A stretch of DNA of 8,473 nt from IMG/VR virus record IMGVR_UViG_2579778666_000005; one strand, written 5' to 3'. Source of the stretch: a virus. Taxonomy: Duplodnaviria > Heunggongvirae > Uroviricota > Caudoviricetes. The notes under the pieces were generated by a model. The model had not been told where the DNA came from. It searched no databases and saw only the letters and a program-made list of their open reading frames with translations. How positions within the stretch are numbered: position 1 is the first letter of the stretch; every line of letters starts with the position of its first letter. The position numbers and the translations under genes are program-made. Below, one piece after another: positions 1-8,473 of the stretch.

Positions 1-1
1 G

Positions 2-19
2 TAATGCCAGTCAGTTAAG
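2..19. repeat. IS4 terminal inverted repeat (end distal to the transposase start)
   Basis: taatgccagtcagttaag; matches the reverse complement of 1410..1427 (taatgccgatcagttaag) at 16 of 18 positions. Confidence 0.85.
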
Positions 20-1343
20 CAACTGACTGGCTCTTTTTCGGGGCTGTGGGGTATTTCCAGGGCCTCTCCTTTACCACTCTCGGGAAGGCCCTTTCCCTTC
101 TTGTCGGTAATTTCACAAGTTGTCCCATACTTGCAAGATCGCGCATCAGCTCCGGTATACGTCCCGGTGAAGCGCCCTGCAATGTCATCAGCATTCTCAT
201 CACCATTCCGCATGATTCTGAGAAACTCAGTTGATTCGGCCAGTAACCTTTCAGATGTTCCGCCATTTTAATCATCTGATATCTCACCAGATTATAAGCC
301 AGTAAGACACCCCACAGCTCTTGCTCCACAAGCTCCGGCTTTTTACTTCTCAGCGTCAGCCTGCTCCGTTGCATCGTCTGTTTTATCTCCCTGTATCCCA
401 GTTCGATTTCCCAGCGATGACTGTACAGATCCCCCATTTCTCCTCCGGGGAAGCGCATGGCGTCCGTCATCGACGTCAGCAGATGGCAGACTTTTCCTTT
501 GCGCGTCACGGTCAGCAGGCGGGCAGTCACTTCATTTCCCAGTCCCGGCCACTTTTTTCGTGCCTGCGGGCTGGTTTTCAGCTTCACCAGATGATCGCCT
601 TTACCCAGTTTTCTGATCTCTTCATATTGCGCTCCCTTTCTGAGAGGTATCATCCAGTGGCGGTGTTCTCCCGCCAGGCTCCAGGCATTTAACAGTCCCA
701 GTGAGTAATAACCTTTGTCCATTAACGTCAGAGTGTTATCGCCGGTTTGTTCTATAAGTTGCTCAGCAAGCTCATTTTCGCTGTTCTTCATCGTGCCGAA
801 GGCTGCAGCCGTCAGCAGATGGCTGGTCAGTTCCATCTGGCAGACCATTTTGACCTGCGGGTAGAGCGCCGGGTTCCCGGCATGTGTCTGGCGGGGGAAG
901 GCTGCATCGTTCTCTGGTGTATCCGGTGTGCGCCAGAACACACCATCGATGGCCAGCAGGGTCAGGCCGCACCAGTGCGGATGCGGCGTGGCGTTATGCC
1001 AGAGCTGCGCTGTTTTCGTGAACACGCGGCGGACAGCCTCACTTCCCAGGCGCTGGCGGGCCTGAATAACGGCACTGGGGGCAACGAAGGGGCGATTGCC
1101 CGGCAGCATGATGTCCAGGCGATTCACAATCTGGTGAAGAGGTTCTTTACGCTCAAGCGCCATGCCAACAATACACCAGACCATCATTTCGAGGGGAAGA
1201 CGGCGCTTGCGTAGCGTTACAGTACCTGATTCGGCAAGGCAACGAGAGATGAGTTCGGGGTCGAGGTAATCCCCCAGAGAAGTCAGTGGGTTACGCAGAG
1301 AATCGTAACGGGATACCAGATCAAGAGCCTGTCCAATGTGCAT
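15..1343 (-). CDS. insG: IS4 transposase (DDE family), 442 aa
   Basis: The track ORF 15..1361 begins at a TTG. The first ATG is 6 codons in (1341..1343) and gives [40 protein letters not shown]..., which is the IS4 InsG N-terminus as I recall it. Resulting length is 442 aa. Confidence 0.92.
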
Positions 1344-1409
1344 AAAAAAATCCGGAAACAAGTGAGCGTTTCCGGATTCTTACACAGCCACTGGATCGGT
1401 CAACTGATC

Positions 1410-1427
1410 CTTAACTGATCGGCATTA
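1410..1427. repeat. IS4 terminal inverted repeat (end proximal to the transposase start)
   Basis: Reverse complement taatgccgatcagttaag pairs with 2..19 (16/18). Confidence 0.85.
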
Positions 1428-1461
1428 CCTTCAAAGAGGCGGTTTATGTTATCCCATTGGA

Positions 1462-3105
1462 TTAAGATCTACATTCAACTAAAAGGTACACTAATGGACG
1501 TTCTGGCGTCCCATTCTTCTTTGCAACAAAAGCAGATATTTTGTGTTTTGCTATTTTTTGCTTGAGTTTTTTACATAACACTTTGTTTATATAACCAAGT
1601 TTCCCGCTCTCATGAACAACAGCTATAGCATGTGGATCAACCGGGTTATCCTCTTCAGGAACAAGCTTGACCAAATCACCGACCATTACTTTCGACAAAT
1701 CAAGCCCTTCCTGATAACGAGTTCCTGCCACTTCAAAAAGAAGCTCACCTTCACTATTAAGAATTTCTGGATCTGGCACCAAACAAAAACCATCGCCAGG
1801 TGATTTTGCTCCTGTATATCCTAACAGCGCAAAATCAGAGCCTTCAAATGGATGGGGGAGCAAATGTTGAGCCAGATACTCAGCAAAGTCTTTTCTTTTC
1901 CGTGGTGGTAAACGCCGAACAAACGGGTCAAGCACGTTGTTCGTATGTTCTTCACTTTTCAGACTAAATGCGGGATGTCCTGCAAACCCTTTCTCTTGGG
2001 CTTTAGCATAATCTTCTGACTGAAAATGGTATGTGAAGACGTAGTTATCCCCTTGCTGACGATCAATCTGACCAACAACATAACGAGTACCGCCTGTGGG
2101 TGGCTGCCATGTAAGAAGCAACCGAGTAGGCTCCATTATTCTGTTTATAGTACGCATATTTAGAATCAGTGATAACCTTAGGTATCTACGCCTCAATAAA
2201 CGAATCGTCCAATCCGCTCGTTCCCTAGTGAACGGCACATCGGAGCTAATTTCGCAAAGTGAATCTATCTTGTCGACCAGTTCCTGAAAATCAAATTCAA
2301 GTCTCCGGGCCAAGTACGCTTTTGACTGCTCATCAAGAGCCAAATCCTGTATAGAAGAAATATGACCTAATCGTTCATGCGTGTCTGCCCGATTCTTCCG
2401 CAAATGATGACAACCACGCTGTATGTATTCATCTACATTTTGATGGTTCCATCCTCTGATCCTCTCTACATACCTTTCATGCCCCAAACTAGTACCATTA
2501 TCGAAATATGGTGCGAGATATCCCTTCACTTTAGGTGGCGTTATGCCTGGTGCAGATTCAGGTACAAAAACAAAACCCCAATTCTCTTGGTGTCTATCAC
2601 TATTACCGATGAGCGCATCAAAAAGCAGCATATCGTAAAGCCATTGGATCCAGTCTGGAGAGATCAGGCCGCGGATACTAAAAGCCCTACAAATTAAGCG
2701 TAGATCAACAAGGTTATGGTGTCTTCCGGAAGAGTCATCAAAATCCGATATCAACACATGAAAAAAATCAGACGCATGAACAAATAACTGGCTACTTTGA
2801 TCGTAAAACCACTCAAGCAAAGCTCCATATTCGTATTCACCGTTCTCCATCATTCTTCGCGCTGGCAATGCTTTAGGAACAGGAACGCCCATAACATCTC
2901 CAACTATATAAGCAACGGTTTCCATCCAGTACTGATCGGGATAAGCATCTCTTGAGAGTTTAAAAAGATAAGGCCATTCCGGTTTTATCCCCTCAGGAGC
3001 ATCATTCGGTGACCAAAGCATTTTTTTATCCCTCGCTCCTCGAGGAAAAATGCCATGCTCATCATCTTTACGCCAACTAGTTACATCTATTAAATTGATA
3101 TCCAT
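1462..3105 (-). CDS. HipA-like (PI3/4-kinase-fold) protein kinase domain fused to a C-terminal HIRAN domain, 547 aa
   Basis: ATG start at 3103..3105, TAA stop at 1462..1464. Catalytic-loop-like motif LIGNSDRHQENWGF at about residues 164-177 (GNxDxHxxN, HipA_C-like) followed by APYFDNG at about 198-204 (HipA YD-like metal-binding motif). C-terminal NPVDPHAIAVVHESGKLGYINK at about 487-508 resembles the HIRAN signature (NPxDxNAI ... G..GY). Start lies 9 nt downstream of the preceding gene's stop, so probably co-translated. Visibly AT-rich. Confidence 0.8.
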   Translation of the reverse strand: MDINLIDVTSWRKDDEHGIFPRGARDKKMLWSPNDAPEGIKPEWPYLFKLSRDAYPDQYWMETVAYIVGDVMGVPVPKALPARRMMENGEYEYGALLEWFYDQSSQLFVHASDFFHVLISDFDDSSGRHHNLVDLRLICRAFSIRGLISPDWIQWLYDMLLFDALIGNSDRHQENWGFVFVPESAPGITPPKVKGYLAPYFDNGTSLGHERYVERIRGWNHQNVDEYIQRGCHHLRKNRADTHERLGHISSIQDLALDEQSKAYLARRLEFDFQELVDKIDSLCEISSDVPFTRERADWTIRLLRRRYLRLSLILNMRTINRIMEPTRLLLTWQPPTGGTRYVVGQIDRQQGDNYVFTYHFQSEDYAKAQEKGFAGHPAFSLKSEEHTNNVLDPFVRRLPPRKRKDFAEYLAQHLLPHPFEGSDFALLGYTGAKSPGDGFCLVPDPEILNSEGELLFEVAGTRYQEGLDLSKVMVGDLVKLVPEEDNPVDPHAIAVVHESGKLGYINKVLCKKLKQKIAKHKISAFVAKKNGTPERPLVYLLVECRS

Positions 3106-3114
3106 ATCTTACGG

Positions 3115-3666
3115 TTACCCAGCTAATGCACGGAAAGCAGCACTAACATAAGCTACCTGAAACTTTGCATCTCGAAGCGCATGATGCGCATCAGTAACAT
3201 TAATGGAAAAATTTGCCCTTACATCAATATTCTTAAGGCTTTTAGCTAGTTCAACGATGGTACGCACGTCTCGATCATTTCGAAAACGCCATGGGATATT
3301 TTGCGCATGTTTACGGTAAACCGCTGCCAATATAGCGTTATCAAAGCTTGCCCCATTCCCCCAAACTTGTACGTCATCGTTACTACGACTTCGTACAAAT
3401 AGAGAAAATTCTTGTAAGGCTTCATGTAAGTCAACAGCAGACGGGTCATTAAAAACCGCCCTTGCAGAATCGCTTTGTATCATCCACCACTGTAAAGTTT
3501 TTGGGTCTACAAAACTATTTTCCAATGCAGATGATAGGGTTATAACTCTATAAAACTCATCCCCACACTTGCCAGTCAGAGGCTCAAAGAACACAGCGCC
3601 GATTGAAATCAAAGGAGCATCCATTGACACACCTAATGTTTCTATATCGAGCATTAAATTATTCAT
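3115..3666 (-). CDS. DEDDh-family 3'-5' exonuclease (DnaQ/RNase T-like), 183 aa
   Basis: ATG at 3664..3666 preceded by a strong SD (ggaggttaa ATG). All three exo motifs are present: Exo I LDIETLG (D8, E10), Exo II GNGASFDNAIL (D109), Exo III HHALRDA (H161-x4-D166). Stop TAA at 3115..3117. Confidence 0.82.
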   Translation of the reverse strand: MNNLMLDIETLGVSMDAPLISIGAVFFEPLTGKCGDEFYRVITLSSALENSFVDPKTLQWWMIQSDSARAVFNDPSAVDLHEALQEFSLFVRSRSNDDVQVWGNGASFDNAILAAVYRKHAQNIPWRFRNDRDVRTIVELAKSLKNIDVRANFSINVTDAHHALRDAKFQVAYVSAAFRALAG

Positions 3667-3806
3667 TTAACCTCCACCCCAGACATAGCTCAGGGAAACG
3701 TAACCTATTGAAATAACGAATCAAGTATTTGTCACATTCTATACTAAAACATTCGAATTCCAAAACTTCAGCTTTTGCAACCCCTTACAAGTCAATTGAT
3801 CCATAA

Positions 3807-3826
3807 TACTGTATACATACACAGTA
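3807..3826. promoter_or_regulatory. LexA (SOS) box in the intergenic region between gene A and the exonuclease/kinase cassette
   Basis: tactgtatacatacacagta matches the E. coli LexA consensus TACTG(TA)5CAGTA at 18/20, with CTG and CAG separated by 10 nt. It lies about 140 nt upstream of the exonuclease ATG on the coding side. Flanking sigma70 hexamers are ambiguous: TTGACT at 3790..3795 and TAGAAT near 3737..3742 are both plausible pieces but not correctly spaced with each other. Confidence 0.7.
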
Positions 3827-3844
3827 CTACATTTGAAAAACAAA

Positions 3845-6121
3845 TCAAGGGAAATCATTAAAACCCGGCCAATCACAACAAGGCGGATAAACAAATTTTT
3901 TCATGTCATAAATAACTTCTGCCCCACGAGCCAGCGCCTCAAGCTCCCATCTCTGAGGCCTGATACCGTTCTGAGCAAGGTCAACGCGGATACGGGTGAT
4001 TTGCAATCGTTCAGACCGGGTCAGTCTGGCCGATGGTGCAATTTCATGCGGTTTTAACGGGCTTCCGTTTCTTTGCTGACGGTTTGGTCTTCTCAGGCCG
4101 TATTTTAATGCACCTCTGAGCGCCCTCACGACCTCCGGGTCATTCCATTCGATAACACCGTCATCAACCAGATTAAGCACTGCTGCGGCGTGCTCAGAAG
4201 GTTTGGGAGCCGTTAACGAAGTATCACTGCCGGTGAACTTTCCACAGTTATTGACAGGACTCCGAGGCGCGGCGATGCCGCTTTTTAAAGTCAAAGGCTC
4301 AACGACCGGAACTTTCGGCACAATGCGCCAGTCCGTCGTTCTGGTGATATGAATATGACGCGCGCCGAGATGCGGCGCGTAAATGCCGACCACTCTCTCG
4401 ACTTCTTCCTCGTACTCGTTAACGTCATCCGACGGGCTACGGGCGACTCTGACAGTCTGACAATCGCGCGGAACATTTGCCCCACCCTGCGCGCTGATAT
4501 ACAACGCAAAATCACCACTGTCTGCGGCAGCGCGAGCAGCCTCGACGCGTTCGTCAAACTCATCAGCAATACTGACGCCGCGAGGCAATTTGCGTAGTTC
4601 ACGGTAAGCCCCCATTGTCGGCAGTCCAACCGTTTTAAATTGCGGGATGCGCCACGTTGACGCCCATGCGGTAACAGCCGCGGCAGTATCTTTAAGCGGC
4701 TTACCGGTATCGTTATCGAGCTGACCATCCAGTGCATAGCCGTCGATATTTTTTGAAATGTATTTCGCGATATATCCCGCAGCACCGCCCCGGTTAAGGT
4801 GTTTTGCCTGAAAACGGTTTCGCGCGGCTCCTCTTTCGTCGCCATCCTCTTTGAGCGCATAGCGACGCATGATTTCAATAATCTGGTTACGCTGGCGTGG
4901 ATTACAAAAAAGCATCATATGCCAGTGCGGCGTTCCGTCGTGGTGTGGTTCAACAACACGCAAACCGTAGGCCTGTAAATCATTATCCTTGAATGCCGTG
5001 CGCATCAGGCTCCAGATACGGCAGAGATAACGCTGCGCATCCTTTGGATTAAATGCCTCATCATTCCAGCCGTGATTTAGCTGGACGGTTTTACTTTCGC
5101 CTTTTCTGACCTGACGTGTCGGGTGATACTTTGACGGCGCGGTCAGCGTGATAAACATCCCCACATCACCCTCTGCGGCAGCGTAACGCTCAATACCGGC
5201 GATGGTGTTCATCAGCTCCATCCGGCGAATTTCTGGATTAGAAATACTGCCCATCACCTTACTGATAAGGTCGATGCGCTCGCCGGTTTCCCTGTTTTCA
5301 AGGTCACACGATTTAAGAAATTCCAGATTTGCCTGGCGGCGCGCACGCACATCACGAATGGCATGTTTACTGGCATAAGGAGAACGGTCTTTATTGACCT
5401 CCCCGACAGCAATCAGTAACGCCTCATGCCAGCGCATACGCTGGCCTTTAAGCTGATGAGTCCACCATTCATCGTTAAACAGACGGGCAATGGCAGAATA
5501 TGCCTGCCTCGTGGTCATCTGCCCTTTACGGTATTTTTTCCAGTAGAGCGGAGAAATATTGAAAGCACGTGCAGCGCCAGCAACATGACCATAGAGGTGA
5601 GCCTGCGCCTCATCCGTAAACAGCGATTCTTTTTCGCCATGCGCATCCACCCAGGCATCGCAGAGTTCCTCATACATCATGAAAAGCTGCGATGAGATAC
5701 GGGCGGCAAACTTTTTCAGCTCCTTATCATTCATCCCCGGCAGACGCGCATAATGGTCACGCTCTGCCAGAAACAGCAACGACGCGTCGGTGTTCATTTC
5801 ATGGCGCTGATTCACACGCTCAATGCGCGGCCATAAACGACGCTGAAAAGTGGATGTGAGGAAATAAAACCCGTGCACCGGGCTTTTATTGCGCCGGATG
5901 TAGTCATAGCGTGAAGTAAACAGCGAGCGCAAAAAGTAAGGCAGGCGGTTAATCGTGGATAAAACACCTTGCACCTGACGCATCTCGTCACGTGTAAGGG
6001 GTCTTTCGCGCCCGACGGCCTCGCGTGGCGCGTTCCATGCATAAGCACCGGTAAACGTCTTACCGGTGCCTGCGGCAAATGCTGACGGAGGGACAAAACG
6101 CCCGGAGGCTTTAACGGCCAT
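3845..6121 (-). CDS. A: P2-type replication initiation endonuclease gpA (HUH rolling-circle Rep), about 758 aa
   Basis: HUH motif PHWHMMLF (codons for HWH at 4919..4927) and a double-tyrosine motif GYIAKYISK (Tyr codons at 4772..4774 and 4760..4762). N-terminus MAVKASGRFVPPSAF... from the ATG at 6119..6121 matches my recollection of P2 gpA. The track start at 6163 is a TTG that would overlap the upstream gene by more than 50 nt; I prefer the ATG. Confidence 0.88.
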   Translation of the reverse strand: MAVKASGRFVPPSAFAAGTGKTFTGAYAWNAPREAVGRERPLTRDEMRQVQGVLSTINRLPYFLRSLFTSRYDYIRRNKSPVHGFYFLTSTFQRRLWPRIERVNQRHEMNTDASLLFLAERDHYARLPGMNDKELKKFAARISSQLFMMYEELCDAWVDAHGEKESLFTDEAQAHLYGHVAGAARAFNISPLYWKKYRKGQMTTRQAYSAIARLFNDEWWTHQLKGQRMRWHEALLIAVGEVNKDRSPYASKHAIRDVRARRQANLEFLKSCDLENRETGERIDLISKVMGSISNPEIRRMELMNTIAGIERYAAAEGDVGMFITLTAPSKYHPTRQVRKGESKTVQLNHGWNDEAFNPKDAQRYLCRIWSLMRTAFKDNDLQAYGLRVVEPHHDGTPHWHMMLFCNPRQRNQIIEIMRRYALKEDGDERGAARNRFQAKHLNRGGAAGYIAKYISKNIDGYALDGQLDNDTGKPLKDTAAAVTAWASTWRIPQFKTVGLPTMGAYRELRKLPRGVSIADEFDERVEAARAAADSGDFALYISAQGGANVPRDCQTVRVARSPSDDVNEYEEEVERVVGIYAPHLGARHIHITRTTDWRIVPKVPVVEPLTLKSGIAAPRSPVNNCGKFTGSDTSLTAPKPSEHAAAVLNLVDDGVIEWNDPEVVRALRGALKYGLRRPNRQQRNGSPLKPHEIAPSARLTRSERLQITRIRVDLAQNGIRPQRWELEALARGAEVIYDMKKFVYPPCCDWPGFNDFP

Positions 6122-6386
6122 ATGAGCCAAAAGCCTCTGAACAACGCTTGCTGAGTTGCTCAACCTGCGCGTTTAAATCAGCAAAAGACTTTGCGCTTCC
6201 GGTCAGAATATCGTGATGCATCAGGCCGGAAACAAGCTGGCTTAATTTCGGGTAATAACCAACCACCGCCAGCCATTCCTGACCGGCGTTTTTACCGCTT
6301 TCCGCTCTCTTTTTCTCGTGGAGAATAAACTGGAAGCTGTCACTGGTAACGACATAACGTTCGCCAATTTCAATACGAATACTCAT
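6111..6386 (-). CDS. Small conserved early-operon protein, 91 aa; by position the P2 orf83 equivalent
   Basis: ATG start with a GGAG SD 7 nt upstream; ATGA start/stop overlap with the upstream ORF; its 3' end overlaps the gene A start. Function unknown. Confidence 0.7.
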   Translation of the reverse strand: MSIRIEIGERYVVTSDSFQFILHEKKRAESGKNAGQEWLAVVGYYPKLSQLVSGLMHHDILTGSAKSFADLNAQVEQLSKRCSEAFGSYGR

Positions 6387-6607
6387 GCCGTTCTCCGGTA
6401 ATGTTTGTTTTTTGCTTCAAAGACTGACTGACAGGAAACACAACGCGTGGCTGACGGATAAGCCGCACGACGGGCAGCAGGTATTGGCGCGTCACACTCT
6501 TCGCAAACCAGCGCAGAAGCACCGCAATGTTTACCCCTTGCCGCGTTAATCTGGCGCTCCAGTAATTCAGCCTGTTGTTCCTGAATAAAATCTACGTTGT
6601 CCGGCAT
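6383..6607 (-). CDS. TraR/DksA-family C4 zinc-finger protein, 74 aa; by position the P2 orf82 equivalent
   Basis: CxxC-x17-CxxC (CEECDAPIPAARRAAYPSATRCVSC) in a short protein with an acidic N-terminal helix; strong SD (aaggag) 7 nt upstream of the ATG. Confidence 0.75.
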   Translation of the reverse strand: MPDNVDFIQEQQAELLERQINAARGKHCGASALVCEECDAPIPAARRAAYPSATRCVSCQSVFEAKNKHYRRTA

Positions 6608-6609
6608 TA

Positions 6610-6909
6610 TCAGCTCCTTTTATCGTTAAGTTTCCTGGATACATCAGCGCAATAACTGGCGAGTTCTGTCGTTAATTTTGTCAGTTCATCCACTGAGGAA
6701 ATTTGCTTGTGGAATACAGCGCGTTTAACAAGTAAATTGACCACATCAGACAGGAGGTTTAATTCATTCTGATAAATCGCGATAACAGATTCAGTGATGT
6801 CGCGTTTTTCTTTATCAAGACAAAGTTGAATAAGAGACAAATCGCCATTTTCCATAACGGCGATTTTTAAGGCGTTATTCAGTAATACAACTGAATGAGA
6901 ACAGGACAT
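6610..6909 (-). CDS. Hypothetical early-operon protein, 99 aa; by position the P2 orf81 equivalent
   Basis: The track start at 6912 is TTG. The adjacent ATG at 6907..6909 has a GGAGG SD about 9 nt upstream and overlaps the upstream stop (TGATG). Confidence 0.65.
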   Translation of the reverse strand: MSCSHSVVLLNNALKIAVMENGDLSLIQLCLDKEKRDITESVIAIYQNELNLLSDVVNLLVKRAVFHKQISSVDELTKLTTELASYCADVSRKLNDKRS

Positions 6910-7133
6910 CAAAGTACCTCCCCACGAGACAATCCGATATTGTGAAATTTTTCCGACTCCTGACTGAGCAGCTCGACTATCTCCACGCGGGATAACTCCG
7001 CCTTTGTGATGTGGCGAATCATGGCGTCAAGATGAGAAGAAAAGCGCGTCGCAGCGTCAGCCTGTGCTTCGGTTCTGGCCTGTTGCAGCAGTAATGCGTA
7101 TTTACCGCACTGATTTTCAGAAACTGTATGCAT
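6909..7133 (-). CDS. Hypothetical early-operon protein, 74 aa; by position the P2 orf80 equivalent
   Basis: ATG at 7131..7133 with a GGAG SD 8 nt upstream; same strand and operon context. Confidence 0.65.
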
Positions 7134-7196
7134 AATTTTCTCCAGGCAAAAAGAAGCCCCGCACGATTAAGTGCGTTTAAAACTCTGGTTAATTAT

Positions 7197-7697
7197 TTAA
7201 TGCAGATATTGCTCTGGTTTTACCGACGTCAGAATTGTCGGTGCATACTCAAACAGGCTGAATAATTCACGTAATGCACGGAATAAAGCATCACGCCAGT
7301 AACATGACTCTTCATTAATTCGCCAGTATGGCTGGTTGAATTCTTTTTCAGTCAATCCGGCATGCATAAATAAAGTACGACGCTGACTGACTGTTAAAAA
7401 ACTAATATATGCATACTCACTTGCGCCAACCTGACGGCGTTTTGAGAATGCCCCACGCAATTCATCAATTGCACAAACCAGCCGTTCACGTTCGACGTCG
7501 TTCATTTCTTCAAAACGCATCGTTGCATGACGTTGTTTTAACTGCGCATGAAAGCAAACCGTTAGCCGTTCGCGTTCCATCATCTGATTATAATAATCAC
7601 ATGTATCCTGCCAGCGAGGGACGGCCAGATGCTTACCAATTATCCGGCGCATAGCTGCTGGCTGTTTTTCAACGAGATTAAGCGTCATCACTGTCAT
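7197..7697 (-). CDS. B: P2 gpB-like replication protein (helicase-loader role in P2), 166 aa
   Basis: Length 166 aa and N-terminus MTVMTLNLVEKQPAAMRRIIGKHLAVPRWQD... match my recollection of P2 gpB. GGAGGG SD 9 nt upstream; ATGA overlap with the upstream ORF. Confidence 0.8.
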   Translation of the reverse strand: MTVMTLNLVEKQPAAMRRIIGKHLAVPRWQDTCDYYNQMMERERLTVCFHAQLKQRHATMRFEEMNDVERERLVCAIDELRGAFSKRRQVGASEYAYISFLTVSQRRTLFMHAGLTEKEFNQPYWRINEESCYWRDALFRALRELFSLFEYAPTILTSVKPEQYLH

Positions 7698-7864
7698 TTC
7701 CAGACCCTCCGGCTTTTCAGAAAGGTCAGAGCCTTCTTTAACGGACTCTGTTTTTTGGTGCGGATAATGATTCCCTTGCGTCCCTTCCCGTGGGTGATGG
7801 TGAAGTCAATCGCCCTGGGGCTTTCGTTACGCAGTAACTGAGCAATACAACGCGGTTCACTCAT
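7694..7864 (-). CDS. Small basic protein, 56 aa from the ATG at 7864 (65 aa if 7891 is used); by position possibly the P2 orf78 equivalent
   Basis: Lys/Arg-rich C-terminus. The ATG at 7862..7864 overlaps the stop of the truncated upstream ORF (ATGAGTGA), typical of translational coupling. The ATG at 7891 has no SD and an in-frame stop just upstream. Confidence 0.5.
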   Translation of the reverse strand: MSEPRCIAQLLRNESPRAIDFTITHGKGRKGIIIRTKKQSPLKKALTFLKSRRVWK

Positions 7865-8033
7865 AATCACAACCCCATCCACAAAAGCCATGCATCACGC
7901 TGTTCAACTGGTCGGTTATAAAACGCCTCTCGTACAGCGCGATTAAACTCTGGAATGAAAACCCACTTCTCACCGACACGGGCGTTCGGCTTACTTGGAT
8001 CACGAAGCTCAATAACTGGCAATTTATTCTCTT
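7857..8033 (-). pseudogene. 3' fragment (58 codons plus stop) of an early-operon gene truncated by the IS629-like insertion; possibly a cox-like first gene
   Basis: One minus-strand frame is open from the IS junction (8033) to a TGA at 7857..7859, giving KRINCQLLSFVIQVSRTPVSVRSGFSFQSLIALYERRFITDQLNSVMHGFCGWGCDYE*. It has no start codon in the prophage-derived sequence. The sequence does not match my recollection of P2 Cox, so identity is uncertain. Confidence 0.4.
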
Positions 8034-8087
8034 TGAACCGCCCCGGGAATCCTGGAGACTAAACTTCCTGAGAAAGAGGTAAACAGG

Positions 8088-8414
8088 ATGACTAAAAATA
8101 CTCGTTTTTCCCCCGAAGTCCGTCAGAGGGCGATTCGTATGGTTCTGGAAAGTCAGGGCGAATATGACTCACAGTGGGCGGCAATTTGTTCCATTGCCCC
8201 AAAGATTGGCTGTACACCGGAGACTCTGCGTGTCTGGGTACGCCAGCATGAGCGGGATACCGGAGGCGGTGATGGCGGGCTCACCACCGCTGAACGTCAG
8301 CGTCTGAAAGAGCTGGAACGTGAAAATCGTGAACTGCGCCGCAGTAACGATATCCTTCGCCAGGCTTCCGCTTATTTTGCGAAGGCGGAGTTCGACCGCC
8401 TCTGGAAAAAATGA
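8088..8414 (+). CDS. IS3-family transposase OrfA (HTH and leucine-zipper part), 108 aa, IS629-like
   Basis: [85 protein letters not shown]... matches IS629 OrfA as I recall it to within a few residues. ATG with an upstream GAGG/AGG. Confidence 0.9.
8406..8411 (+). other. Putative programmed -1 ribosomal frameshift slippery run (A6) at the orfA/orfB junction
   Basis: gg aaa aaa tga: the A6 run at 8406..8411 sits immediately before the orfA stop with orfB open in the -1 frame. This is the arrangement IS3-family elements use to make the OrfAB fusion transposase. Confidence 0.5.
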
Positions 8415-8473
8415 TGCCACTGCTGGATAAGCTGCGTGAGCAGTACGGGGTCGGACCGCTATGCAGCGAACTG
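8411..8473 (+). CDS. IS3-family transposase OrfB, 5' end only (truncated by the window), in the -1 frame relative to OrfA
   Basis: [21 protein letters not shown] begins at the ATGATG at 8411, overlapping the orfA stop; classic orfA/orfB arrangement. Confidence 0.8.

Follow-up and report, generated by a model that had tools for sequence, protein, structure and literature searches.

IS4 and the hotspots of P2-type prophages

IS4 of Escherichia coli (insG; IS4 family, IS4 subgroup) is an element of 1426 bp with inverted repeats beginning with TAATGCC and a single ORF that carries both transposase domains. As reportedly established by Klaer et al. in 1981 and by Mayaux et al., its targets follow the consensus AAA-N20-TTT and its duplications measure 11-13 bp. 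The members of the IS4 subgroup share the end signature "-AATR", a striking specificity for the arms of the target and direct repeats of 10-13 bp (PMC2266710).

Two annotated copies from complete E. coli genomes, used throughout this work for comparison, illustrate this behaviour, both being located inside an intrinsic terminator just 3' of a gene, with the transposase pointing in the same direction. The first (L011; NZ_CP024141) lies in the adhE terminator, where the sequence reads AAAAAAACGG-CCCCAGAAGGGG-[IS4]-CCCCAGAAGGGG-CCGTTTATG with a 12-bp duplication (CCCCAGAAGGGG), and the second (L012; NZ_CM128543) lies in the lipA terminator, where it reads AAAAAACCCG-CTTCAAAAAGC-[IS4]-CTTCAAAAAGC-GGGTTTTTT with an 11-bp duplication (CTTCAAAAAGC); both duplications are centred on the loop of the terminator hairpin. 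The second system of relevance here is the accessory hotspot that phage P2 harbors between gene A and cos, the site of P2 tin and old.

The DNA analysed here, a stretch of 8,473 nucleotides taken from the IMG/VR record IMGVR_UViG_2579778666_000005 and hereafter called the window, brings the two together: with good confidence, IS4 transposed into the terminator that closes an accessory cassette of a P2-type prophage, in a simple and recent insertion at a preferred target. The locus resembles the adhE and lipA copies in the kind of target and in orientation but, unlike these chromosomal housekeeping sites at which both flanks of the element are visible, the target is the terminator of a prophage cassette and a single flank can be seen. 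Since the IS, the kind of target and the kind of prophage hotspot are all known, the event is an ordinary one, already known, and of little importance beyond the annotation of the locus.

The prophage early region and its cassette

The DNA to the right of IS4 is the early region of a P2-type prophage, in which all genes are on the minus strand. Adjacent to the element is a gene for a HipA-like/HIRAN protein of 547 amino acids (1462..3105, minus strand), designated "kinase" in the initial annotation, which matches the Pfam families HIRAN and Couple_hipA and whose HipA_C score is under the cut-off of that family. Next to it lies the gene for an Rv2179c-like 3'-5' exonuclease (3115..3666, minus strand; Pfam), and the cassette matches the PADLOC candidate PDC-M03 (PDC-M03A and PDC-M03B). 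The remainder of the region comprises replication gene A (gpA; 3845..6163, minus strand; Pfam Phage_GPA), two DUF5405 genes, a TraR/DksA zinc-finger gene and a DUF2732 gene, all recognized by Pfam, a 166-aa gene that has no Pfam match in the window and whose counterpart in the relatives matches Phage_RepB, the P2 gene B type, and a 65-aa ORF, these too being on the minus strand.

The cassette is thus found between gene A and cos/portal gene Q, in the P2 gene order, i.e., in the position of the P2 hotspot. The cargo, on the other hand, differs from that described for P2, consisting of the Rv2179c-like exonuclease and the HipA-like/HIRAN protein, and IS4 is interposed before cos. The distance of 34 bp originally given between the element and the stop codon of the "kinase" gene is correct, the stop codon being located at 1462-1464 and the gap at 1428..1461.

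The IS4 copy

IS4 occupies positions 2..1427, i.e., 1426 bp, with its transposase strand being the minus strand and thus coinciding with the direction of the cassette genes. The terminal inverted repeat at the transposase-distal end (2..19, TAATGCCAGTCAGTTAAG) emerged from an inverted-repeat search, and the outer limit of that at the transposase-proximal end (1410..1427, CTTAACTGATCGGCATTA) is marked by the IS-free relatives, which align from 1428. The arms 1-19 and 1410-1428 are 89% complementary, the terminal repeats measuring 18/19 nt, and both ends of the element start with TAATGCC, consistent with the "-AATR" signature of the subgroup.

The transposase ORF (15..1361, minus strand) encodes 448 amino acids if read from a TTG or 442 amino acids if read from the ATG at 1343..1341. 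Its translation is free of internal stops, matches the Pfam families Nterm_IS4 (3.1e-33) and DDE_Tnp_1 (3e-31), and is identical to the protein WP_000483767.1, annotated in L011 as "IS4-like element IS4 family transposase". At the nucleotide level 1425/1426 bases are the same as in L011 and L012, the only difference being a synonymous G/A at position 717, and an Rfam scan found no RNA family inside the element. The window element is therefore a complete standard IS4 of E. coli with an uninterrupted transposase, as had been proposed on account of its exact length and intact ORF; apart from base 717 and from its new location, nothing of substance distinguishes it from the known copies, with which it shares an identical protein and an A-run/palindrome/T-run target. 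Its ends and ORF, both intact, suggest that it may be capable of transposition. Such elements are widespread, near-full-length matches being present in 2,429 of 5,426 complete E. coli genomes, with a best match of at least 99% in 1,742 records.

The empty site, a predicted terminator of the cassette

Five loci (L013-L017) were retrieved by means of the gpA protein encoded in the window; they match positions 1428..8034 of the window at 6607/6607 bases and contain neither of the two IS elements discussed here. Because this identity spans exactly 1428..8034, both junctions, 1427|1428 and 8034|8035, are placed to the base; the comparison with IS4-free relatives, which had been suggested as a check, thus provides an independent confirmation of the former junction, and the feature as a whole lies well outside what chance could give. 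Beyond the cassette, the IS-free loci contain the P2 cos 19-mer at 131 bp from the target, followed by the Q terminator and by the portal and terminase genes, so that the early surmise that cos and gene Q originally lay beyond the element proves correct.

The sequence of the empty site is GCAAAAAAAACCG|CCTTCAAAGAGGCGGTTTATG. Read on the minus strand, which is that of the cassette genes, it gives AAACCGCCUCUUUGAAGGCGGUUU and then a stretch of U's, corresponding to a hairpin of nine pairs ahead of a U run, with a calculated RNA fold energy of -16.4 kcal/mol; a terminator scanner likewise classified as terminator-like the corresponding stretch of L001 (6018..5995, minus strand), which reads AAACCGCCTCTTTGAAGGCGGTTT and then a T run, with nine pairs, five of which are GC. 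A GC-rich hairpin with a U run is therefore present on the same strand as, and after, the last gene, 16-40 bp past the last stop codon of the cassette and 131 bp before cos, which are the features of a Rho-independent terminator, and the empty target site is predicted to be the intrinsic terminator of the cassette operon. The natural distal boundary of the cassette would accordingly be this terminator, with cos and Q coming thereafter.

What is left of the terminator in the window is a remnant at 1428..1445 (minus strand), which includes 1428..1439 (CCTTCAAAGAGG), the predicted right copy of the target duplication, and in which only three pairing bases of one hairpin arm persist beside the cassette. 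Between the stop codon of the HipA-like gene and IS4 the scanner found no terminator-like site on the minus strand, and the RNA of the window at the position of the former terminator shows no excess of structure over shuffled sequence (z = +0.7). Since IS4 is inside the hairpin, and since the hairpin is gone while the remnant of one arm is still there, the terminator was split rather than deleted; the view that IS4 may have removed the native terminator is hence right as to the loss of the hairpin and wrong as to the manner, the hairpin having been interrupted by an insertion within it.

Target preference of IS4-type elements

A survey was carried out in which the GTDB species representatives were searched for exact matches to 27 nt from one end of IS4; it gave 90 unique flanks and 28 complete copies with their left flanks, from Escherichia, Shigella, Rahnella, Kosakonia, Pantoea, Pectobacterium, Photorhabdus, Photobacterium and other genera. 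TTT occurs at +11..+26 of the right flank in 83/90 unique flanks and, on the left, AAA is found at the mirror position in 25/28 flanks; a target duplication of 11-14 bp, most commonly of 12 bp, accompanies 26/28 complete copies, the two exceptions being copies of Shigella flexneri with mismatched flanks. IS4-type elements are thus almost always found in A-run/hairpin/T-run sites with duplications of 11-14 bp, in agreement with what has been described for the target arms and repeats of the IS4 subgroup.

The empty site of the window conforms to this pattern, being AAA-AACCGCCTTCAAAGAGGCGG-TTT, i.e., AAA, 20 bases and TTT, and both it and the survey resemble the AAA-N20-TTT consensus given above. 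When a position weight matrix constructed from the surveyed flanks, with the window left out, was used to score the IS-free locus L013, the real insertion site ranked first among ~22,000 positions, with a score of 26.3 versus a mean of -15 and an SD of 8. Furthermore, the top E. coli IS4 matches run 23-26 nt past the element into the flank of the window because those copies lie in look-alike terminators.

The proposed course of events is that a copy of IS4 moved into the P2-type prophage and entered the Rho-independent terminator of the exonuclease and HipA-like/HIRAN operon, the choice of the terminator being explained by the strong preference of IS4 for an A-run, a GC-rich palindrome and a T-run. 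The element would have cut symmetrically around the hairpin loop, generating a duplication of 11-14 bp predicted to be, in this case, CCTTCAAAGAGG. More generally, the terminators that close cargo operons of prophages would be good landing sites for IS4.

The left flank

The only base to the left of IS4 is the G at position 1; if the target duplication measures 11 or 12 bp, this base would close its left copy. When the scoring is anchored at the right junction, a 12-bp duplication (1428..1439, CCTTCAAAGAGG) scores best and one of 11 bp (1428..1438) comes second, both versions ending in G like position 1. A duplication of 13 bp (1428..1440), included in the range initially proposed, is excluded because the copy would end in C, leaving 11 or 12 bp as the likely lengths. 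Since a G abuts IS4 in 23/28 surveyed copies (82%), the identity of this base is nearly uninformative as to the duplication, and it was dropped as evidence for it.

A simple insertion predicts that IS4 would be preceded by a flank in which ...ATCAAGCGCAAAAAAAACCG-CCTTCAAAGAG(G) abuts TAATGCCAGTCAG, so that ...GCAAAAAAAACCGCCTTCAAAGAG(G) would be next to the end of the element; CCTTCAAAGAG(G) would in turn be preceded by the cos-proximal GCGCAAAAAAAACCG and, ~130 bp further to the left, by the P2 cos 19-mer and then by Q. On the base rate provided by the survey, such a simple insertion is highly probable.

The first alternative to be considered concerns the left edge of the window, where an assembly break is probable. 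The window could be a short-read contig that enters a collapsed, multi-copy IS4 and ends where the flanks of the various copies diverge, a situation compatible with either a simple insertion or the rearrangement considered below. This reading, which deserves serious consideration although it is not the one we favor, draws its strength from the fact that the window starts one base outside the IS4 terminus, a very unlikely outcome for an arbitrary cut, from an edge base common to 82% of the IS4-type copies, as the edge of a repeat in an assembly graph would give, and from the position of the right end of the window, which is also inside a multi-copy IS, where it cuts an ALIL pseudoknot; however, the edge could also have arisen from trimming, and, if the other copies had an A at 717, the private synonymous base found there would favor the formation of a bubble. 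Were the repeat collapsed, "full length and intact" would describe the consensus IS4 of the genome and not necessarily this copy, and the locus-specific part would presumably be reduced to the junction 1427|1428 over about a k-mer's length, the junction itself remaining real.

According to a second alternative, IS4 was inserted at this site and a later IS4-IS4 recombination, either an inversion or a deletion, exchanged the left flank, so that position 1 would join unrelated chromosomal DNA and cos and the late genes would no longer be adjacent. Precedents are offered by the two surveyed complete copies (2/28, both of S. flexneri) with mismatched flanks and no duplication; at least two IS families have been active in this prophage, and nothing to the left of the IS4 edge, at which the window ends, contradicts an exchange. 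We consider it unlikely, nevertheless, given that 26/28 copies have kept their duplication, that over 6.6 kb the backbone of the prophage shows no other change and, with little weight, that position 1 is the G predicted by a simple insertion.

Transcription across the junction

Because the transposase points in the same direction as the cassette, transcripts of the latter reach IS4 in sense orientation relative to the transposase and, with the terminator hairpin split, would be expected to run into the element. About 50 nt inside IS4, and ~85-120 nt past the stop codon of the HipA-like gene, such transcripts would encounter a hairpin followed by U7 (1344..1376, minus strand; arms 1376..1368 and 1359..1351, U7 at 1350..1344), which directly precedes the transposase ATG (1343). 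The calculated energy of this hairpin is -19.8 kcal/mol (z = -6.5) and none of 200 shuffled sequences is as stable; the simple terminator scanner missed it, probably because extension of the stem consumes the U run.

At this end of IS4 there is a single promoter-like site (1376..1403, minus strand), TTGACC-16-AAGAAT with a TG motif; from its match to the consensus it is the probable promoter of the transposase, and the last base of its -10 hexamer coincides with the first base of the 5' arm of the hairpin. Since the promoter ends at this arm, the transcript of IS4 itself would not contain it, whereas read-through transcripts would form the complete hairpin.

IS10 and IS50 are said, after Davis, Simons and Kleckner (1985), to protect themselves in this way against read-through from outside promoters. 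The likeness concerns both the structure just before the transposase start, predicted to form exclusively in transcripts initiated outside, and the promoter of the element, which starts within the structure. Unlike IS10, in which the inhibition is translational and due to fold-back, the structure of IS4 is predicted to be terminator-like as well, consisting of a hairpin and U7.

The hairpin with U7 thus probably replaces the lost terminator ~100 nt further downstream, by which it would both end the cassette transcripts and keep outside transcription off the transposase. As the cassette transcripts should end at this site, the net effect of the IS4 insertion on the expression of the cassette is probably small, and the main consequence would be that 1.4 kb of mobile DNA now parts the cassette from cos. 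A second terminator-like hairpin (6..31, plus strand), made of 11 pairs and followed by TCTTTTT, faces inward at the opposite end, where it would act on transcripts coming from the left. Bringing its own, presumably insulating hairpins, IS4 need not alter the expression of the cargo genes next to which it is inserted.

A further, quite unlikely suggestion is that the insertion amounts to a near-neutral "terminator swap" after which the cassette, still expressed but uncoupled from cos, would become fixed with the help of the disruption of cox described below. If true, this would provide a small general route by which terminator-seeking ISs aid the domestication of prophage cargo, in the present case a candidate defence cassette.

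Age and distribution of the insertion

The cassette is present in 61 complete E. coli genomes, and the 40 of these 61 that are listed are 100% identical to it, with alignments that all start at position 1428 of the window; no junction between IS4 and the cassette was found among the matches listed for the 61 genomes. In Yersinia phage GMG73 and Escherichia phage 899, both of P2 type, the cassette is likewise 100% identical from 1428 and devoid of IS4, and exact-protein look-ups with the HipA-like protein and with the lineage-specific gpA returned IS-free loci alone.

The junctions were also sought as such. The 26-mer of the right junction is absent from the GTDB species representatives, the JGI metagenomes and IMG/VR, and the predicted left junction is absent from the JGI metagenomes; a chimeric query made of the cos flank and IS4 detected no junction in the 5,426 complete E. 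coli genomes, and none was found in the phage and plasmid collections searched. A recurrent insertion of IS4 beside the P2 cos was considered and set aside, no case being found in the 5,426 complete E. coli genomes; from the same finding it follows that the insertion is private and recent.

The identity of 6607/6607 bases with the IS-free loci indicates that both insertions are younger than any point substitution in this 6.6 kb. The recent origin attributed to IS4 is therefore borne out, both by flanking DNA without a single substitution relative to the IS-free relatives and by the absence of the junction from the 5,426 E. coli genomes. That IS4 is instead an old, inherited part of this prophage type is virtually ruled out and is already contradicted by the IS-free relatives, considering that the element is absent from the cassette-bearing E. 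coli genomes (61; among the matches listed), from the two phages and from the five loci of identical backbone, that the empty site is an intact terminator and that the predicted left junction is missing in 5,426 genomes. IS4 is thus a late, lineage-specific addition and not a part of the cassette system.

The IS3-family element

The identity of the prophage to the IS-free loci ends at 8034, where a second element begins. Its left 439 bp (8035..8473, plus strand), starting with TGAACCGCCCCGGG, are visible and belong to an IS3-family element of the ALIL-pseudoknot type that interrupts cox. The idea that active IS elements flank the hotspot on both sides, and could thereby promote its rearrangement, is not supported, in that this element is inside cox, after codon 35 and 4.2 kb beyond the proximal edge of the cassette, rather than at the edge of the hotspot; moreover, with 439 bp visible, the term "active" is unsupported for it.

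Belonging to different families, IS4 and the IS3-family element cannot recombine with each other or form a composite transposon. An IS-bracketed unit was considered and rejected, the left element being an IS4 with DDE_Tnp_1 and the right one an IS3-family element with HTH_Tnp_1 and ALIL. Taken together, the two IS insertions indicate a prophage in decay, and, with the terminator and cox each hit independently, it is probably defective.

An exact look-up of the ORF of the truncated cox beside the IS3 junction and of the ORF spanning this junction returned nothing on record. The OrfA of the IS3-family element matches HTH_Tnp_1 (Pfam), the identity of the element to annotated IS3-family copies is 99.8%, and Rfam places the ALIL frameshift pseudoknot at 8369..8473, where it is cut by the end of the window. 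The insertion of this element places the early promoter and the B-A operon on opposite sides of it.

The accessory cassette and its distal boundary

The accessory cassette (window 1462..3666, minus strand) consists of the gene for a 547-aa protein and that for an Rv2179c-like DEDDh 3'-5' exonuclease. The 547-aa protein, in which Pfam identifies HipA-like and HIRAN domains, matches both components of PDC-M03, a PADLOC candidate defence system, with residues 4-308 corresponding to part A (3.8e-31) and residues 325-545 to part B (1e-30); judging from these matches, it looks like a fusion of the two. The cassette is present in 61 complete E. coli genomes, with 100% identity among the matches listed, and that of phages GMG73 and 899 is likewise 100% identical to the cassette of the window. 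In the IS-free relatives 131 bp separate the P2 cos cleavage site from the cassette terminator, these elements occupying positions 5851..5869 and 5995..6018, respectively, of L001, the locus that represents the empty IS4 target site.

Insertion of an IS3-family element in cox

At the opposite end of the window lies an IS3-family element (8035..8473) belonging to the ALIL-pseudoknot type; it breaks cox after codon 35, at the junction 8034|8035, and separates the early promoter from the B-A replication operon. This junction was absent from every complete E. coli genome searched.

IS3-family insertions were also seen just beyond the prophage, between yiiM and cpxA, in two loci whose prophage copies lack IS4 and are either identical to the window (L017, insertion at 2126..3474) or 98% identical to it (L006, insertion at 1..475); IS3-family elements are therefore active around the locus in related strains.

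Edges of the window

On its left side the window starts (position 1) a single base beyond the end of IS4, and on its right side it stops (8473) in the ALIL pseudoknot of a multi-copy IS. Taken together, the two edges suggest that the window is an entire contig broken at repeats and, because of this apparent breakage, its IS sequences may represent a collapsed consensus.

IS4-type ends in other genomes

In the survey of exact matches to the 27-nt IS4 end among GTDB species representatives (loci L020-L115), many copies were found in Rahnella sp. PCH160, Kosakonia oryziphila, Candidatus Pantoea communis, Photobacterium sagamiensis and a Scandinavium MAG, and nearly all the IS4-type elements surveyed are located at terminator-like sites made of an A-run, a hairpin and a T-run. 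Two full-length IS4 copies of Shigella flexneri SFBU1023 (CP182556.1; L048 and L088) have mismatched flanks and no target duplication, as expected for recombination between IS4 copies.

E. coli-type IS4 ends were also encountered on very small contigs from unrelated taxa: a 265-bp contig of Methylobacterium mesophilicum (L089), which shares its flank with L033 and L049, both from E. coli, and a 1423-bp contig of a Nostoc MAG (L052). Both most likely reflect E. coli contamination of the respective assemblies.
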